Positions 6,785 through 43,800 of a DNA stretch of 64,000 nucleotides are shown here, one piece after another. The stretch's first letter is position 1. Each line of letters opens with the position of its first letter. The notes beneath the pieces are model-generated. The model saw only the letters and a program-made list of their open reading frames with translations. It did no database searches and was not told where the DNA came from. The position numbers were made by a program, and so were the translations under genes. The DNA is from an uncultured Acidobacteriota bacterium (GTDB taxonomy: Bacteria > Acidobacteriota > Thermoanaerobaculia > Multivoradales > UBA5704), in contig CAVWRJ010000021.1 in NCBI GenBank assembly GCA_963757335.1, positions 256,853-320,852 on the forward strand. The letters run 5' to 3'.

Positions 6785-7044
6785 GAATCCCCCTGTACGA
6801 TGACGGGTGTATGCGACTGCGAGCGAGCAGCCCCGCCGTTCCACGATGCCGGACTTGTCAGCCACATTATGTACTGAGATCACTGGAGCGCAGCGAAGGA
6901 CTCGTCGGGGAAGCGCCGCACCCCCGCCCAGATCCTTCGCGGTGCTCAGGATGACGGTAGGAACGGTCGGCGCGAACCACACCGGGATCAGAATCCATCC
7001 GTTGAACACACTACGGTAGCGTTTGGGCGCTGAGCGCCAGGCGG

Positions 7045-7214
7045 CGGTCGCTGTCCCTCGGCTGGCGACGATCGCGAGCTTAGCGGGAATCGCTGCCCTT
7101 CGGCTGGCGACGACCGCGAGCTTAGGGGCAGTCGCTGCCCCTCGGCTGGCGATGATCGTGAGCTTAGGGGGAGTCGCTGCCCTTTGGTTGGCGATGACCG
7201 TGAGCTTAACCCAA
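7045..7214. repeat. 42-bp tandem repeat array, left part (4 units); each unit has a C(UUCG)G-type hairpin
   Basis: Units tcgctgcccttcggctggcgacgaccgcgagcttaggggcag; continues on the far side of the IS at 9214-9345. Confidence 0.85.
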
Positions 7215-9213: not shown

Positions 9214-9345
9214 AGTTGGGTTAAGGGCAGTCGCTGCCCTTCGGCTGGGGACGACCGCGAGCTTAAGGGCAGTCGCTGCCCCTCGGACGGCGACTACCGC
9301 GAGCTTAGGGGGAGTCGCTGCCCTTCGGGTTCGGACGCCCAGGCG
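9214..9345. repeat. 42-bp tandem repeat array, right part (about 3 units)
   Basis: Same unit as 7045-7214; starts immediately after the right-hand TTAA of the IS. Confidence 0.85.
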
Positions 9346-12500: not shown

Positions 12501-13685
12501 TCAGGGGGCGTCCTCGCGGGGGCGCACCTGGATCGACTGCGAGCCGGTTCCGGAGAGATCGGGGGCCTCTCCCAGGGCGGCGCGGTAGACGTCCAGGGTG
12601 CGCCGGGCCGTCCTCTCCCAGCGGAAGTCCTCGGCCCGCCTCGTCCCCAGCTTGGCGAGGGCCGTCCGGTGCTCGGGGTCGGCCATGCAGCGGGCGATGG
12701 CCTTCGCCATGCCGTCGACGTCGAGCGGGTCGACGAGATGCGCGTAGCCCTCGGCGATCTCTTTGAGCGCCGAGGTGTTCGAGGTGATCACCGCCACTCC
12801 GGAGGCCATGGCCTCGATCACCGGCAGGCCGAACCCCTCGTAGAGGGTCGGATAGAGGAAGAGCTCCGCCCCCTGGTAGATGGCGGGGAGGGCGTCGTCG
12901 GGGACATGGCCGATCTGCCGTACCCGGTCTTCGAGGCCGAGGTAGAGGGCCCGCTGGCGGACCTTCTCGTCCCCCCCTCCTTGCCGCCGACGCAGAGGAG
13001 CGGCGCGTCGAACTGGGCGATGCGGCGGGCCCGGGCGTAGGCCTGGACGACGTTGTCGAGGTTCTTGTGCGGCTTGGGGTTGCCGACGAAGAGGAGGTAG
13101 GGCCGGCGGATACCGTGCTCGGCGAGCCGGCGCTCGATCTCGTCCTCGGGCAGGCGCTGGCGGAAGCGGTCCTCGACCCCGTTGTAGATCACCTGGATCT
13201 TCTTGCCGTCGACCTCGAAGTACTCCATGAGGTCGGCCTTGGTGTTCTGCGACACGGCGATGACGCGGTCGCCGCGCGACAGGCCCCGCCGGATCATCCC
13301 CTGGGCGTAGAAGAAGGCGAGGCCGCTCGGCAGGAACTCCGGGTAGAGGAGGTGGATGATGTCGTGGATCGTCACCACCACCCGCCCCTTGATGAACCCG
13401 GGGAGGACGTAGTGGGTCGAGTGGTAGAGGTCTAAGTCCAGGCGGTAGAGCTGCCAGGAGAGGGCGAGGATCTCGCGGAGCGAGTAGACCGGCGAGCTCT
13501 CGATGGCGACCTTGAAGTTCTCCGGCAGCTCCGGCAGGAACTCCCGGTCGGCCGGCCGGACGAGCAGCACGTAGCGGTTCTCGCGGTCGAGCGCGGTCAG
13601 CGAGCGGACGAGGTTCCGGACGTAGGTGCCGATCCCGAAGTCCTGGATCTTCCGCGCGTCCAAGCCGATCGTGTAGGGCAAAGGG
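12501..13685 (-). CDS. glycosyltransferase family 4; frameshift between the N-terminal half (frame of ORF 12818..15082) and C-terminal half (frame of ORF 12501..13760)
   Basis: N-terminal IGLDARKIQDFGIGTY. C-terminal LYPTLYEGFGLPVIEAMASGVAVITSNTSALKEIAEGYAHLVDPLDVD...FRWERTARRTLDVYRAAL. Start codon uncertain. Confidence 0.75.
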   Translation of the reverse strand, partial: PFALHDRLGRAEDPGLRDRHLRPEPRPLADRARPREPLRAARPAGRPGVPAGAAGELQGRHRELAGLLAPRDPRPLLAALPPGLRPLPLDPLRPPRVHQGAGGGDDPRHHPPPLPGVPAERPRLLLRPGDDPAGPVARRPRHRRVAEHQGRPHGVLRGRRQEDPGDLQRGRGPLPPAPARGRDRAPARRARYPPALPPLRRQPQAAQEPRQRRPGLRPGPPHRPVRRAAPLRRRQGGGDEKVRQRALYLGLEDRVRQIGHVPDDALPAIYQGAELFLYPTLYEGFGLPVIEAMASGVAVITSNTSALKEIAEGYAHLVDPLDVDGMAKAIARCMADPEHRTALAKLGTRRAEDFRWERTARRTLDVYRAALGEAPDLSGTGSQSIQVRPREDAP

Positions 13686-13691
13686 TCTCCT

Positions 13692-13767
13692 GGCTCCGTT
13701 GGATTCCGAGGACGGGCGACTGGCTGCGCGGAGCGCCCGAAGGTCGCCCGCAGGATCCAACGGAGCC
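13692..13767 (-). repeat. dispersed palindromic element (copy 1 of 4): conserved core ...TGCGGGCG-CTCCTTCGGGCGCTTCGCGC-GCCAGTCGCCCGTCCTCGG... flanked by inverted arms
   Basis: Reverse complement of 13692-13767 aligns with the copies at 16117-16211, 37464-37544 and 43684-43774. Confidence 0.8.
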
Positions 13768-13788
13768 GTGTCCTCCTGGGACGACGAG

Positions 13789-14934
13789 CTAGTCTAGCGC
13801 CTCGGCGAAGACCTCCGCCATCTCCCGCGCCGCCTCTTCCCAGCGGAAGCGGGCGGCGCGGAGGACGCCGCGCCGGGAGAGGTCGGCGGCGCGGGCCGGG
13901 TCGTCGAGGATCTTCTTCAAGCGCGGCGGCCAGGCCGTCGGCGTCGTGGGGGGCGACCTGGAGCGCGGCGTCCCCCACCACCTCGGGCAGGCTCGACGCG
14001 CTGGAGACGACGGTCGGCACCCCGCAGGCGAGGGCTTCTAACGGCGGCAGGCCGAAGCCTTCGTAGAGCGAAGGGTAGGCGAAGGCCCGCGCCCCCTGGA
14101 AGAGCCGGACGAGGCGGTCGTCGTCGACCCGGCCGAGGGAGCGGACGCCGCCGTTCGAGAAGTTCGAGAGCCGCTCGATCCGGGCACGGAGGGCATCGTT
14201 GTGCCAGCCGGCGCCGCCGGCGAGGAGGAGCGGCGGGGTCGCCGGGTCTTCGCGGCGGAGCGCCTCCCAGGCGGAGAGGAGGACCGAGACGTTCTTCCGC
14301 GGCTCTAGGCTCCCGAGATAGAGGATGTAGCCCTCCGGGGTCCCGAGCTCCCGGCGGATCGCCGCCACCTCCTCCGGAGAGCCCGGAGCGAAGACCGGGT
14401 CCACCCCCTCGTAGACCACCCGCACCCGGGAGGCGGAGGCCGGGAAGTGGAAGGCGAGGTCGGCCGCGGTCGCCTGGGAGACGGCGACGATCCGCCGCGC
14501 CCGGTCGAGCGAACGTTCGAGAAAGGGGAGGATGCTCAAGCGGACCTTGACCGTGTGAGTCTCGGGATAGAGGAGGGTCGTCAGGTCGTGGATGGTGACG
14601 ACCGAAGGGAGCGCCCGCACCTTGGCGGCGAGGGGAAGGGTCATCAGGGGCGACCAGAAGAGGTCAACGTCCCCCCGCGCCAGCCGCCGCGGCAGCTGCA
14701 CCTGCTGCCAGATCACCCCCAGTGGCGCCGCTTGCACCTCGATCGCCACCCCCGCCGCCTCCAGCTCCTCTGCTCCTCGGGGAGGCTTGTGGCAGAGCCC
14801 GAGAAGCCGCGGGCCATTCGCCTGCTTGGCGAGAGCGAGGAGGAGATTCCGGGTATAGACGGAGATCCCGGTCGGTTCCGGCACCAGGGCGCGGAGGTCG
14901 ACGGCGAGGGTGGGCCGGGAGGCGCTCGGCATAG
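13789..14934 (-). CDS. glycosyltransferase family 4; frameshift near 13925
   Basis: IHDLTTLLYPE...YPSLYEGFGLPPLEALACGVPTVVSSASSLPEVVGDAALQV. The true C-terminus ...RFRWEEAAREMAEVFAEALD is in a second frame. Confidence 0.8.
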
Positions 14935-15261: not shown

Positions 15262-17520
15262 TCACCCGTTGCTCCGGACCACCCGGTAGATCTCCTCCGC
15301 GCCGTCCCGGTAGATCGGCTGGAAGCGGCCGGGGTGGGAGAGGATCCAGCTCCGTTGCGGCTCCTCGCCGCCGGAGAGCCGGATCACGAGATATTGCACG
15401 TTCAAAACGGTGAGGATGCGCCAGAAGCGGCGGAACTCGGGGTAGTCGAAGGGGAACTCGGCGCTCCCGCCGAAGCGGTAGTACTGCGCGCGGAGGTCCC
15501 AGGTCGTGGGGACGATCTGGACGTCGTTCTGGAGCCGGCTGCCGAAGAAGAGGTAGGGCTGGTTGAAGGCTAGGTAGCCGACCGTGGCGCCCAGTGGACC
15601 CGCCGCCTGCTCCAGGGCGAGGGCGGCCGGCCGGTCGCGGAGCTTCAGGCGCTGGTAGGTGTCGATCCCCCGCGCCAGCCGGGGCGTCAGGAGGAGGAGG
15701 ACGGCGAGTCCGGCGATGGCGAGGACGGTCACCTGTCCTTCGTGGCAGCCGGCGAGCGGCGGCGCGGAGCCGTTCCCGCTGGGTCACGAGGATTGCGGCG
15801 ACGGCTACGAGGGCGAGGGCGAGGAGAGTCTTGCGCCGGTAGTCCAGGCCGATCCAGTTCTCGACCGGCGGGAGGAAGAGGAGGAGGCCGAGGAGGATCG
15901 CACGCACGGCGGCTCCGGCACCCCGGACCCGATCTTCCAGCCGCTCGGTCAGCCAGGCGAGGCCGACGGCGAGGAGGCCGAGGCCGGCGAGCCAGTAGCG
16001 GAGGTCCCGGTGGTCGTCCATCAGCTCCATGAATTCGAGGAAGAAGACGAGGGGGAGGGTGAGGACGATTGCCGCCTCCAGCCGGCTTTCCCGAGCGGGG
16101 GAGCCCTCCCGCCTGGCCGGAACCGGCTCCGTTGGTTCCTGCGGGCGGTCTCCTTCGGGCGCTTCGCGCAGCCAGTCGCCCGTCCTCGGAAGCCAACGGA
16201 GCCGGTCCCGGCCGGGCCCCCCATCCCGGCGCTGCCAGAGGAGCCTCGCGAGGGCGAGGAGAGGCGCCAGGAGAGCGGCCGGGAGCAGGGTGTAGGGGAA
16301 GAGGGGGCCGAAGAGGTCGGCGCGGTGGGTCAGGTAGGTCCAGACGTCGAAACGGAAGCTGTCGCGGGTGCGCCGGTAGGCGAGGGTCGCCGAATCCCAG
16401 CCGGGGAAGATCTCGTGTCCGAGGAGGCGGAGGGGGGCGGGGAAGAGGGGGTTGCCGGCGGTCCAGGCGTTTCGCAGGTAGGTGTAGCCGCCGGCCAGGA
16501 GGGCGACTCCGGCGAGGGTTCCGGCGAGAGCGAGGAGGCGGCGCCGGCCGGCGCCGTCGGCGAAGAGCGCTCTTCCCTCCGGCTGGGCGAGGAGGAGGAC
16601 GAGGAGAGCGAGGACGATCGTCGCGGCGTAGAAGAGGCCGATGTACTTGGTGCCGACGAGGAGCCCGAGGGCGAGGCCGGTGAGGGCGGCGCGGCCGGCG
16701 GTCGGTTTGCGGCTCGTGGCGAGGGCGCCGTCCAGGGCGGCGAGGGTGAGAAAGGCGGTCGTGTGGTCGTTGCCGGCGGTGAAGGCGAGGAGGGGGAGGA
16801 CCCGGAAGATCGAAGCGTAGAAGAGGGGGGCGAGGGTGGCCGCCCGGCGCGACAGACCGAGCCGCCGGCCGAGGGCGGCGAGGGCGAGGAGGGAGGCGAG
16901 GGCGAAGGGGAGCTGGGTCCAGCGGGCGGCGAAGTCGCTGTCTCTAAAGGGCGCGAGGAGCGCCCAGGACCCGATCTCGGCGAGGATGGGATAGAAGGGC
17001 GTGCTCCGGTCGCCGAAGTCAAACTTCATCATCCGCAGGTCGCCGTGCCGCATCCAGGTGGCGACCGCCGCCATGTGGTAGGAGGCGTCGTCCCCCCCGA
17101 AGGCCCCCACCGGCTCGAAGCGCAGCTGCCACGCTATATAGAGGACGGAGACGGCGAGCGCCCCGGCGGCGGCGAGGACGAGCGCGGTCTCCGCCTGCTC
17201 GATCCAGGTGAGGGAGAAGACCCCCTCTTGAGCGGGGGCCTCCGCCTCTCCAGGTTTCGTCCGGAGAAAGGAGGTCGCGAGGGCGATGCCGGCGATCGTC
17301 AAGAGATACCAGGTGGGCCGGAGCAGGCCGAAGTGGCCGAGGAGGATCGCCGGCAGCGACCCCACGGCCACGGCGACCATGAAGCCGGCGACGGCGGTCG
17401 AGAGCGGCCCCTCCCCTCGCCCACCCGCGGCGAGCAGCCGGCGGGCGATCCGCCAGCCGGTGACCCCCAGGGCCAGAAGGAGGGCGAAGAAGACGAGGAG
17501 GTCGAGCCAGCGGGCGGGCA
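15262..17520 (-). CDS. GT-C fold membrane glycosyltransferase (GT39/GT83 ArnT/PMT-like); frameshift near 15735; carries an in-frame copy of the dispersed palindromic element
   Basis: At least 10 predicted TM helices. TGLALGLLVGTKYIGLFYAA is an ArnT/PMT-like segment. The C-terminal soluble domain sits in the frame of ORF 15262..15732. Confidence 0.6.
16117..16211 (+). repeat. dispersed palindromic element (copy 2 of 4), in-frame inside the GT-C gene
   Basis: Arms ccggaaccggctccgttggttcc / ggaagccaacggagccggtcccgg flank the conserved core. In the gene it is translated as ...GPGRDRLRWLPRTGDWLREAPEGDRPQEPTEPVP... Confidence 0.8.
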
Positions 17521-21459: not shown

Positions 21460-22419
21460 TTGTCGAGAGAGCTCTATCCCGACGTCCGGTGGATCTGGAT
21501 GAACGGCCGCCTCGTCGAGTTCGAGAAGGCCACGGTCCATGTCATGACCCACGCGCTGCACTACGGCTCGGGGGTCTTCGAAGGTGTCCGCTGCTACAAA
21601 ACGCAGCAGGGCTCGGCGGTCTTCCGCCTCCCCGAGCACACCAAGCGCCTGCGCAACTCGGCCAAGATCTACCGCATGGAGCTGCCGCTCTCCGACCGCG
21701 AGATCGACCAGGCGGTCTTGGAGACGATCCGGGCCAACGAGTTCGACGCCTGCTACATCCGACCGCTCGTCTTCCGCGGCTTCGGCCCCATGGGGGTCAA
21801 CCCGCTCAAGGCACCGGTCGAGATGACGATCGCGGTCTGGCCCTGGGGCCGCTATCTCGGCGAGGATGCCTTAGAGCGCGGGGTCGACGTCTGCGTCTCC
21901 TCCTGGCGCCGGGCGGCACCGAGCACCTTCCCCGCCACGGCGAAAGCCACCGGCAACTACCTGAACGCTCAGCTGATCAAGATGGAGGCGATCGCCAACG
22001 GCTACGCCGAGGGGATCGGCCTCGACATCTCGGGGCACGTCAGCGAGGGCTCGGGGGAGAACCTCTTCCTGGTCAAGGACGGGGTCCTGATCACCCCGCC
22101 GGTCGCCTCGTCGCTCCTCTCCGGCATCACCCGCGACGCGGTGATGAAGATCGCCGAGGACCTGGAGATCCCGGTGCGCGAGAGCCTCGTCCCCCGCGGC
22201 CTCCTCTATACCTGCGACGAGCTGTTCTTCACCGGCACCGCGGTCGAGATCGCCCCCATCTGCTCGGTCGACCGCCTGACCGTCGGCGAGGGGCGGCCGG
22301 GGGAGATCACCCGCCGGATCATGGCCGAGTTCCAGCGCATCGTGACCGGCGAGACCCCCGACCGCCACGGCTGGTTGACCCCGGTCGGGGTCCCGGTGGC
22401 CCGGGAAGCGGTGACCTAA
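21460..22419 (+). CDS. ilvE: branched-chain amino acid aminotransferase
   Basis: Class IV aminotransferase: HALHYGSGVFEGVRCY...EGSGENLFLVKDG. Confidence 0.9.
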   Translation: MSRELYPDVRWIWMNGRLVEFEKATVHVMTHALHYGSGVFEGVRCYKTQQGSAVFRLPEHTKRLRNSAKIYRMELPLSDREIDQAVLETIRANEFDACYIRPLVFRGFGPMGVNPLKAPVEMTIAVWPWGRYLGEDALERGVDVCVSSWRRAAPSTFPATAKATGNYLNAQLIKMEAIANGYAEGIGLDISGHVSEGSGENLFLVKDGVLITPPVASSLLSGITRDAVMKIAEDLEIPVRESLVPRGLLYTCDELFFTGTAVEIAPICSVDRLTVGEGRPGEITRRIMAEFQRIVTGETPDRHGWLTPVGVPVAREAVT

Positions 22420-23601
22420 GTGAACATCAACGACCTGCTGAAGATCGCCGTCGAGCGCAAGGCTTCCGACCTCCACTTGAAGGTGGGGAGCCATCCGGTC
22501 ATCCGCGTCGACGGCGATCTCATGTCGCTCTCCGACCTGAAGCGGCTCATGCAGGAGGACACCATCGCCATGGCGTTCTCGATCATGAACGCCCGCCAGA
22601 AGCAGCGCTTCAAGGAGGAGTACGAGCTCGACATCGCCTACTCGGTGCCGGGGCTCGGCCGTTTCCGCTGCAACGTCTTCCAGCAGCGCGGCGCGGTCGG
22701 CCTCGTCCTCCGGGTCATCCCGGCGCGCATCCAGAGCATCCGCGAGCTGATGCTGCCGACGGTGATGGAGAAGATCTGCGAGGAGCGGCGGGGGCTCATC
22801 CTCTGCACCGGGACGACCGGCTCGGGGAAGTCGACGAGCCTGGCGGCGATGATCGACTACATCAACTCGAACCGCACCGAGCACATCATGACGATCGAGG
22901 ACCCCATCGAGTTCCTCCACCGGGACAAGAAGGCGATCGTCAACCAGCGGGAGATCGACGTCGACACCCGCGCCTTCGCCCCGGCTCTCCGCTCGGCGCT
23001 GCGCCAGGACCCCGACGTCATCCTGGTCGGCGAGATGCGCGACTACGAGACGATCGAGACCGCGCTCCTGGCGGCCGAGACCGGCCACCTCGTCTTCTCG
23101 ACCCTCCACACCCTGGACGCGACGGAGACCATCAACCGCATCATCTCGGTCTTCCCGCCGCACCACCAGAAGCAGATCCGGATCCAGCTCGGCCAGGTGC
23201 TGAAGGCGGTCGTTTCGCTCCGCCTCCTGCCGCGCGCCGACGGCATCGGCCGGGTGCCGGCGGTCGAGGTGCTGATCTCGACCCCCTACATCCGCGACTG
23301 CATCGAGAACAAGGACAAGACCAAGTACATCCGCGAGCAGATCGCCCTCGGGACCTCGCAGTACGGGATGCAGACCTTCGACCAGTCGCTCTACCAGCTC
23401 TACAAGAGCGGCCTCATCACCTTGGACGAAGCCATGCGCCGGGCCTCGAACCCCGACGAGTTCAAGCTCAAGATCCAGGGGGTCCAGTTCACCGCCGACA
23501 TCTCCCGCGACCAGATGGACGAGTCGCTCGAGATCCCCGGCGACGGCGACCTGATGGCGAGCGAGTCGCCGTTCGAGATCGACATGGGGAGCGGGCACTA
23601 G
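22420..23601 (+). CDS. pilT: type IV pilus twitching-motility ATPase PilT, GTG start
   Basis: DLHLKVGSHPVIRVDG; Walker A GTTGSGKSTSLAAMIDYIN; AIRQDPDVILVGEMRD. Confidence 0.9.
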   Translation: MNINDLLKIAVERKASDLHLKVGSHPVIRVDGDLMSLSDLKRLMQEDTIAMAFSIMNARQKQRFKEEYELDIAYSVPGLGRFRCNVFQQRGAVGLVLRVIPARIQSIRELMLPTVMEKICEERRGLILCTGTTGSGKSTSLAAMIDYINSNRTEHIMTIEDPIEFLHRDKKAIVNQREIDVDTRAFAPALRSALRQDPDVILVGEMRDYETIETALLAAETGHLVFSTLHTLDATETINRIISVFPPHHQKQIRIQLGQVLKAVVSLRLLPRADGIGRVPAVEVLISTPYIRDCIENKDKTKYIREQIALGTSQYGMQTFDQSLYQLYKSGLITLDEAMRRASNPDEFKLKIQGVQFTADISRDQMDESLEIPGDGDLMASESPFEIDMGSGH

Positions 23602-23885
23602 GCTCCTGAGAGCAGCAGGTCCTCAGCCTGATTGGGATCGGCGGCATCGGCGGGATCAACCCGCCTGGAAGCCCCGAAGGGGCAAAGGCATGTAGCCTGG
23701 GGCGCAAGCCCCAGGTGAGAGACAAAAGAGATCCAGCCCCGAAGGGGCGACGGAAAGCCCGCCACTGCCGTCGCCCCTTCGGGGCTTTGAATTCAATAGG
23801 TGGATCCTGTCCAGGGGCTTGCGCCCCTGGCTACATGCCGTCGCCCCCTCCGGGGCTACTACTGTTGGCTACCCGCCACCGAGAC

Positions 23886-33816: not shown

Positions 33817-34346
33817 GTTCGGGGGAGAGGCAGCTCAGCCGAGGGTGCTGCCTACGCGGCTGTAGAGCTTGTCTTTAAGCGACTCCCGCGATGTATCCTC
33901 TGAGCTTCTTCGCGAGTCCGGCCCCGGGATGAGCTGCTCTCGAGCGCTGGGTAGTGGGCGACGACGATCCCGTCTTCACCGGCCGTTCGCAGGCAGCCAG
34001 ATACTCGAGATACCATGGCGGCTCCTTCCTGAGAGCAGGCTATCCCGCCCAGAGCTTCGCAGGTCCTCGGAATGATCGGTAGAGGCTTCTCGTCGCTGGG
34101 GCTCCCGCAGAGCTTCTGTGCAGCATTAATGCTCTCGTAAAGTGCCGGCTTGAGAAGAGTCCTCGCCGAAGCGTCCCTCCCCCCATCCCCTTCCACCCGC
34201 CCGCCCAGGGGGAGGAACCCTTCGGCGAGGATTCTTCTCAAGCCGAGGCCCTTCTGAACGAGTCTTTCTGCGGAAGCCCTGCGGGACCAGGCGATGCGAA
34301 AGACCCTGCCTATCATTCCAAGGCTGACGAACCACTAAGGCCTCCG

Positions 34347-37440: not shown

Positions 37441-37463
37441 GGCGGGGAGTATATGGTGGCGGG

Positions 37464-37544
37464 AGGCTCAGTTGGCTCTTGCGGGCGGGCTCCTTCGGGC
37501 GCTTCGCGGAGCCAGTCGCCCGTCCTCGGAGCCCAACGGAGCCA
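37464..37544 (+). repeat. dispersed palindromic element (copy 3 of 4)
   Basis: gctcagttggctc-TGCGGGCGGGCTCCTTCGGGCGCTTCGCGGAGCCAGTCGCCCGTCCTCGG-agcccaacggagcc. Confidence 0.8.
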
Positions 37545-37630
37545 GTACCGGGAAGGGGCGGCGATCGGCGCGGAGTGAAGAGGCCGGGCCGGCGGGAGCC
37601 GGCCGGGCCTGACGCGCCGAAGGCTTGCGA

Positions 37631-43675: not shown

Positions 43676-43683
43676 CGAGAGTC

Positions 43684-43774
43684 GGTACCGGGCCCGTTCG
43701 AACCTGCGGGCGGGCTCCTTCGGGCGCTTCGCGCGGCCAGTCGCCCGTCCTCGGATTCAAACGGACCCGGTACC
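43684..43774 (+). repeat. dispersed palindromic element (copy 4 of 4)
   Basis: ggtaccgggcccgttcgaacc-core-attcaaacggacccggtacc. Confidence 0.8.
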
Positions 43775-43800
43775 GAGATTTGAAGGGAAGGGAGGGAGGA

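Follow-up and report, generated by a model that had tools for sequence, protein, structure and literature searches.

Analysis of the window, by which we mean the whole stretch of 64,000 nucleotides under study, indicated that it carries four dispersed copies of one palindromic repeat, all of them at the sites given in an initial annotation made from the sequence (Table 1). A 37-base pattern of the core matched four times in the window against an expectation of 0.00 (none in 100 shuffles), and the final copy coordinates were obtained with a covariance model built later (R1). The focal copy, copy 4, is located in the spacer between the stop codon of an SDR gene (43675) and the start codon of a GH1 gene (43800), and copy 1 in the gap between two GT4 genes; both placements had been given before and hold. 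Copy 3 had been described as lying downstream of pyk; in fact it precedes this gene, 19 nt separating it from the start codon (37440, minus strand), and it follows the preceding 244-aa gene at a distance of 82 nt. Beyond these three intergenic copies, the fourth (16119) lies inside the reading frame of a membrane protein. A size of 76-95 bp had been proposed for the element; the full element measures about 91 nt, and the outer arms of copies 1 and 3 are truncated or decayed, those of copy 1 being shortened and its core carrying a 3-nt deletion.

Table 1. Coordinates of the element copies, their parts and the associated sites in the window.
Feature	Position	Strand	Remarks
Copy 1	13684-13773	-	Covariance model; gap between two co-directional GT4 glycosyltransferase genes; sense orientation
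Copy 2	16119-16209	+	Covariance model; inside a minus-strand ORF encoding a membrane protein of about 720 aa; antisense
Long form of copy 2	16097-16222	+	Palindrome arms extend to about 29 bp or more; entire block absent from homolog
Copy 3	37459-37549	+	Covariance model; antisense to transcription; left arm decayed
Copy 4 (focal), complete 91-nt element	43684-43774	+	Covariance model, 107.5 bits; hairpin z = -5
Copy 4, left arm (GGTACCGGGCCCGTTCGAACC)	43684-43704	+	Pairs with 43754-43774, three C.A mismatches remaining
Copy 4, asymmetric 49-nt core	43705-43753	+	8-bp inner stem P2 (GGGCGGGC/GCCCGTCC) and 27-nt apical region
Copy 4, right arm (GATTCAAACGGACCCGGTACC)	43754-43774	+	Pairs with left arm 43684-43704
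Target-site duplication of copy 4, probable decayed left half GAGAGTC	43677-43683		5/7 match, imperfect
Target-site duplication of copy 4, right half GAGATTT	43775-43781		Comparison with the empty site in L066
Unoccupied site	22417-22420		Occupied in L063 3700-3813 (other strain, same species)

Three further copies were found on L063, a 98-kb contig from another strain of the species to which the window belongs, which is 97-99% identical to window positions 2884-26405. The 10-mer CTCGTCGTCC directly adjoins two different copies, namely copy 1 (window 13779-13788) and the strain-specific copy of L063 (3800-3809); beside both it is upstream in gene sense, yet it has the opposite orientation, and it may be a chance match or a piece of a longer form. 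The reading frame changes in mid-gene at about 12900-13000, 13800-13900, 15740-15790 and 44330, affecting both GT4 genes, the copy-2 membrane protein and the GH1 gene, and the relatives P0059, L063 and L066 read straight through these four points. The changes are probably indel errors, because the naming of the sister-strain contig suggests a long-read metagenome assembly; real pseudogenes are also possible.

The consensus element consists of a 21-bp left arm GGTACTGGGTCCGTTTGAWCC, an asymmetric 49-nt core and a 21-bp right arm, and amounts to about 91 nt; long forms reach up to about 126 nt, and no transposase gene is present within the element. Folding indicated that each copy in the window forms a single long hairpin on either strand, with z-scores of -5 to -7 for three copies and of -2 to -3 for the decayed copy at 37459. 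Mean pairwise identity was 97% in the core (over 27 copies), 74% in the inner arms, 46% in the outer arms and 28% in the flanks. The loop is thus better conserved than the arms, which is an unusual pattern for a MITE-like palindrome. Some departures from perfect pairing are themselves conserved: 25 of 27 copies keep a C.A mismatch (or bulged A) beside the core, and two plus-strand G.T pairs, kept in every copy in which both columns are present (27/27 and 26/26), offset it. On the strand antisense to the core the apex reads GCGCG[A/G/C]AGCGC, and the sole commonly variable core column is the N of GCGNAGC, a DNA mini-hairpin motif (PMC13037366), to which a second c[GAA]g is adjoined; on the sense strand the neighbouring CCTTCGGG would form a c(UUCG)g RNA tetraloop. 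The two readings of the apex, DNA mini-hairpin and RNA tetraloop, are both suggestive and are not separable in these data.

Alignment of 27 copies revealed that the covariation between the arms, previously claimed from the window copies, is borne out and much stronger in the larger set. Changes on both sides were found in 16 of the 30 proposed pairs of the arms and inner stem (P2), and the observed covariation score was reached by none of 500 shuffles. In the proposed register 79% of positions were paired, against 34-50% when the register was slid by 1-3 columns, and across arms and inner stem of the 27 copies 88% of cells were paired. Pair 28/82 occurred as A-T in 11 copies and T-A in 11, pair 18/92 as G-C (13), C-G (8) and T-A (3), and pair 25/85 as T-A (15), C-G (4) and G-C (3). 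One subfamily forms a stepwise series, in which the left arm reads CATTTTG and the right arm CAAACGG, CAAACTG or CAAAATG depending on the copy, and in L061 one T/A pair has been deleted on both arms. The diverged copy of L063 (3720-3798) carries TCTGC/GCAGA in place of CGGGC/GCCCG, that is three compensated P2 pairs with the fold unchanged, and in L006 (1969-2059) the neighbouring P2 pair has changed from G-C to A-T. Because the arms covary and P2 shows compensated changes in these two copies, it is complementarity that is maintained, beyond mere end sequence. The arm differences are mostly compensated; therefore the pairing, or a templating of one arm by the other, is real, and the selection for pairing proposed in the initial annotation was rightly read in that arms and inner stem keep their complementarity.

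The covariation supports a conserved secondary structure, which could equally well be that of a DNA hairpin. G-U cells are rare, and most compensated changes replace one Watson-Crick pair directly by another, with many transversions among them. It had been pointed out that the arm mismatches of copy 4 become G-U wobbles only if the minus strand is transcribed; this is true for the three C.A mismatches of that copy and is not a property of the family, in which the inner-arm mismatches (A.C 11, G.T 7, other 25) have no strand bias. Mismatch asymmetry as a sign of a minus-strand RNA consequently holds for copy 4 and fails across the family.

Analyses of the flanking sequences revealed target-site duplications. 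Among the four complete copies of the subfamily whose outer arms are intact, three lie between perfect direct repeats (CACCACC, GCAGGAT and GAGGCGCG), while only 2 of 650 mismatched flank pairs used as a control reach 7 bp or more. Perfect repeats of 7-8 bp were found at L053, L054 and L059 and also at L040, where the copy is flanked by GAGGCGTG; the repeats, a feature of young copies, are clean in only these 4 of about 26 complete copies, and most older ones have no clean repeats. Three intragenic copies have flanks that are inverted rather than direct. For the L059 copy, which has a perfect 8-bp duplication, the empty site was identified in the orthologous L069/L070 spacer of a related genome (neighbour protein 89% identical), which contains a single GAG(A)GCGC and no element.

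Empty sites were also found for copies of the window. Copy 4 is absent from L066, of 95.5% DNA identity, and from L067, where the SDR-GH1 spacers measure 28 bp and 18 bp, respectively, as compared to 124 bp in the window. Its junction is untidy, since GAGAGTC on the left and GAGATTT on the right in the window stand against one GAGATTT(T) in L066. Empty-site DNA for copy 2 is present in L065, and its sequence suggests that copy 2 may be flanked by a decayed 8-bp duplication. At L063 3700-3813 a diverged copy together with about 30 nt lies between an aminotransferase gene and a T2SSE ATPase gene, and the upstream ORF gains 38 codons; in the window the two genes abut (22417-22420), although the strains are 97-99% identical, and the direction of this event is not settable without an outgroup. 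A clean reconstruction of the junctions was tried for this copy and for copy 4 and was abandoned, 4-19 bases being extra or missing at the junctions. Taken together, the target duplications, the empty sites and the polymorphism within the species demonstrate that the element moves.

Once in place the copies decay. Between the two strains, orthologous copies have diverged about as fast as the genome: the copy 2 orthologues of the window and L063 differ by two core substitutions, and the copy 1 orthologue (L063 12813-12903) is without the 3-nt core deletion of the window. Because orthologues diverge at about the genomic rate and the arms of copies 1 and 3 are eroded, individual copies are not visibly protected in place, so the conservation of core and complementarity has to be exerted on those lineages from which new copies arise. 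Neither an autonomous element or transposase with matching ends nor solo arms were found in the window and related loci (about 220 kb). In the flank of copy 2, L063 10100-10160 lacks 17 nt relative to window 16085-16118, and 3 of 15 outer-arm bases differ, on one arm only; with this change in L063 the membrane-protein gene is split and an ORF (P0059) is called from inside the element. The palindrome flank at copy 2 looks unstable, or difficult to assemble.

At least 6 of the 34 copies known are located in frame within genes, where they add about 33-41 residues in permissive protein loops. Six homologs of the protein that hosts copy 2 (P0003-P0008, 45-68% identity) align on both sides of the insert and are without about 41 residues exactly there. 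The NRPS of L006 contains two copies, in opposite orientations and in consecutive modules, in the variable loop that immediately precedes the A2 motif (NLAY..TSGSTG), and L009 and L031 each contain one copy in the same pre-A2 variable loop of an NRPS adenylation domain, while the single copy of L008 lies in the AMP-binding_C region. The Pfam AMP-binding and AMP-binding_C matches span the inserts, and alignment to Txo1 likewise placed the insert in the variable loop before motif A2.

In Thermoanaerobaculia/Acidobacteriota MAGs and in metagenomes from soil, the family numbers 34 copies or more. MAG BP_61 contributed 12 loci, the Thermoanaerobaculia MAG SMAG_U10817 two loci and MAG MFD09368 two copies, and a metagenome scan added 11 soil contigs; the proteins beside one metagenome copy are labelled Thermoanaerobaculia by their sources. 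When one genome per species was scanned with a 19-mer from the core, true copies were found only in Acidobacteriota, and the remaining matches were chance matches in GC-rich genomes. Plasmid and viral collections gave no match to the element. Four copies per 64 kb, and a further three within 21 kb, would by extrapolation amount to hundreds of copies per genome. The contig L069 (ERZ25039523 contig_23787, 20.8 kb), from the metagenome of the sister strain, carries NRPS genes and zero copies of the element; the family does not reach the density of the window in all related genomes or regions.

A comparison with Rfam, proposed in the initial annotation, was run against Rfam 15 and matched no known riboswitch, terminator or other family; permissive thresholds gave only generic hairpin (miRNA-type) matches far below the gathering score. 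A protein-database search with the in-frame peptide (PRTGDWLREAPEG...) returned two small matches only and no distribution data, and no earlier description of the family was found in Rfam or in the literature searched. An origin from tRNA or tmRNA was considered, as the arms resemble a T-loop (GTTCGAWCC), and rejected, as ARAGORN finds nothing tRNA-like.

The window contains other structured or repeated sequences. An Acido-Lenti-1 RNA motif at 23670-23715 on the minus strand (43.6 bits, above the gathering score) and a second one at 23811-23857 on the plus strand (32.1 bits, below the gathering score) face apart and flank a perfect 19-bp hairpin (23735-23786) sharing the CCCCGAAGGGG motif. Positions 34146-34245 form an unrelated, apparently non-coding long inverted repeat with 38-nt arms that are 92% complementary and a 24-nt spacer, which the element model matches only as a generic hairpin (28 bits); it may represent another palindromic element family. 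Window segments 7043-7209 and 9221-9328 match overlapping, staggered parts of L063 17267-17500 at 90-94% identity with offsets of about 42 nt, which suggests a short tandem or dispersed repeat, possibly coding.

The intergenic copies occupy short spacers, in many cases with only 0-20 nt between the copy and a stop or start codon, and occur between co-directional, convergent and divergent genes. With respect to transcription about 7 of them are forward and 6 reverse, and copies inside genes likewise face either way. The genes beside them have no relation to each other, and no gene family is linked to the element. Promoter- or terminator-like sites were not found in the element, and the sequence after the right arm is not T-rich in the four window copies; the candidate of an intrinsic terminator was rejected on these grounds.

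These data bear on the proposal of the initial annotation that the repeat is a structured RNA serving the host. According to it the element would act as a hairpin in cis or as a small RNA; a factor would bind the conserved 49-nt core, the arms would need only to pair, and its multiplicity would derive from function (mRNA stabilisation, processing or translational coupling) and not from selfish spread. Structured RNAs typically show stems that covary around a near-invariant apical region, as found here; the fold is highly stable, the sense strand offers the c(UUCG)g tetraloop, and many copies lie in operons close to stop or start codons. Nevertheless, we regard this explanation as quite improbable: the nearly even orientation, the scarcity of G-U among Watson-Crick swaps and transversions, the mismatches without strand bias and the lack of an associated gene family, Rfam match, promoter or terminator all count against it, as do the in-frame copies inside coding regions, the presence or absence of copies between near-identical strains and their decay in place. 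From the sequences nothing indicates a strand-specific or dedicated regulatory RNA. The initial annotation had also set a structured element against a MITE; the 7-8-bp duplications, empty sites, strain polymorphism and in-frame insertions are evidence of a transposable element.

We consider it probable that the four repeats are copies of an undescribed non-autonomous, MITE-like palindromic transposable element of Thermoanaerobaculia/Acidobacteriota. Small size, terminal inverted repeats, target-site duplications and dispersed, polymorphic copies, as expected of a MITE, were all found. New copies land in short spacers near stop or start codons, or in frame in permissive loops, and then decay in place. 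A putative transposase acting in trans would make a staggered cut of 7-8 bp, and the lineages that spawn copies would have to keep the core sequence and the complementarity of arms and inner stem. Duplications of 8 bp and GG termini fit IS1, IS6, IS66, IS256, ISL3 or IS1595, which is to be taken as a lead only. When transcribed, the element would act on its host like any stable hairpin in an operon, in either orientation, rather than as a dedicated riboregulator.

In a classical MITE the terminal repeats are expected to be best conserved, whereas here it is the loop, and the arms change in a compensated way. Because of these compensated changes, a transposase that reads the element end by end does not explain the pattern. 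The need to keep core and complementarity points to an element that is recognised as a folded strand or as a cruciform, or whose arms serve each other as repair templates; recognition of this kind and template switching from arm to arm are non-exclusive explanations of a frozen loop with covarying ends. Template switching would keep quasi-palindromes perfect without selection, and the frozen core would still have to be explained.

A mobile element need not depend on a cut-and-paste DDE enzyme that reads its ends. It may instead be recognised as a folded single strand, either of DNA, as for REPIN/RAYT or IS200/IS605-type HUH systems, or of an RNA intermediate, with the core as the recognition module and the arms as a sequence-independent stem. 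HUH/RAYT and IS200/IS605 systems are not known to make target-site duplications, so the 7-8-bp duplications seen here set the element apart from them; moreover, the element lacks the GTAG/CGTC tag by which most REPs are defined (PMC3733652), no enzyme emerged as a candidate, and template switching within the palindrome could keep the arms complementary without selection. On these grounds we hold such a replacement of the DDE route to be unlikely, even though the loop is far better conserved than the arms, arms and P2 stay complementary through double changes, the stem, perfect in other respects, conserves one mismatch or bulge together with two G.T pairs, and no solo ends of the transposase type were found in about 220 kb. 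The antisense apex also speaks for it, as it matches the GCGNAGC mini-hairpin motif (PMC13037366) with N as the only commonly variable core column and the second c[GAA]g adjoining. Propagation through a folded single DNA or RNA strand, by an enzyme that reads the 49-nt apical module, this module being perhaps nucleated by the antisense GCGNAGC/c[GNA]g mini-hairpins, is offered as a speculative and rather doubtful extension of this thought. If true, the element would be recognised as a hairpin and yet make 7-8-bp target duplications, a combination undescribed for REPIN/RAYT, IS200/IS605 and classical MITEs.

The MITE-like element favoured here provides a defined and searchable mobile repeat for uncultured soil Acidobacteriota (Thermoanaerobaculia) that is usable as a strain marker. 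Such a repeat can create spurious ORFs, split or extend genes, and confuse gene calling and assembly. Its recurrent in-frame landing in the loops of NRPS adenylation domains constitutes a natural experiment on permissive insertion sites, and the frozen loop with covarying arms and inner stem gives a handle on transposition that requires a hairpin shape rather than an end sequence.

Comparison with known systems indicated that the closest parallel in behaviour to the in-frame copies is given by the Rickettsia palindromic elements (RPEs), which are likewise short palindromes located between genes and, with unusual frequency, in frame in unrelated coding genes. In-frame RPEs add a peptide in a tolerated loop of unrelated proteins (PMC10969869), and in-frame insertion in unrelated coding genes without breaking the domain was also found here. 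The two are unrelated in sequence and differ in size (about 150 bp for RPEs and about 91 bp here), and the present element is GC-rich, belongs to a free-living soil phylum and shows 7-8-bp target duplications and recent insertion polymorphism. Its repeated in-frame landing extends to a GC-rich phylum of free-living bacteria the phenomenon of selfish DNA within coding genes known from Rickettsia.

The bacterial MITEs with hairpin transcripts (Coxiella QMITE2, Neisseria Correia/NEMIS, enterobacterial ERIC and pneumococcal RUP) are similar in being small, with terminal inverted repeats and direct repeats at young copies, in forming a stable stem-loop if transcribed, and in their intergenic location in operons in both orientations; QMITE2 has repeats of 7-9 bp and inverted ends of 23-29 bp (PMC10969869). 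Unlike in these families, the centre of the present element is nearly invariant while the inverted ends vary and covary, and the element is GC-rich, does not target AT-rich DNA and has no known parent insertion sequence.

Integron attC sites resemble the element as imperfect palindromes that are read by structure and have conserved unpaired stem bases. They have conserved ends (RYYYAAC/GTTRRRY) and a variable centre, and form arrays of the same orientation between cassettes, whereas here the centre is conserved and the copies are scattered in both orientations among housekeeping genes with flanking duplications; the attC reading was rejected on this anatomy. The REP/REPIN repeats, mobilised by RAYT tyrosine HUH transposases, share hairpins with complementary stems, and their stem complementarity is thought to reflect recognition of folded single-stranded DNA. 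REPs have a length of 20-40 bp, with a GTAG or CGTC tag on one of their ends (PMC3733652). An assignment to REP/REPIN was rejected, as the unit here measures 91 nt, ends in GGTAC, contains GTAG in two copies only and is flanked by duplications; REPINs have conserved arms, a variable spacer and no target duplication, features that do not agree with the element described here.
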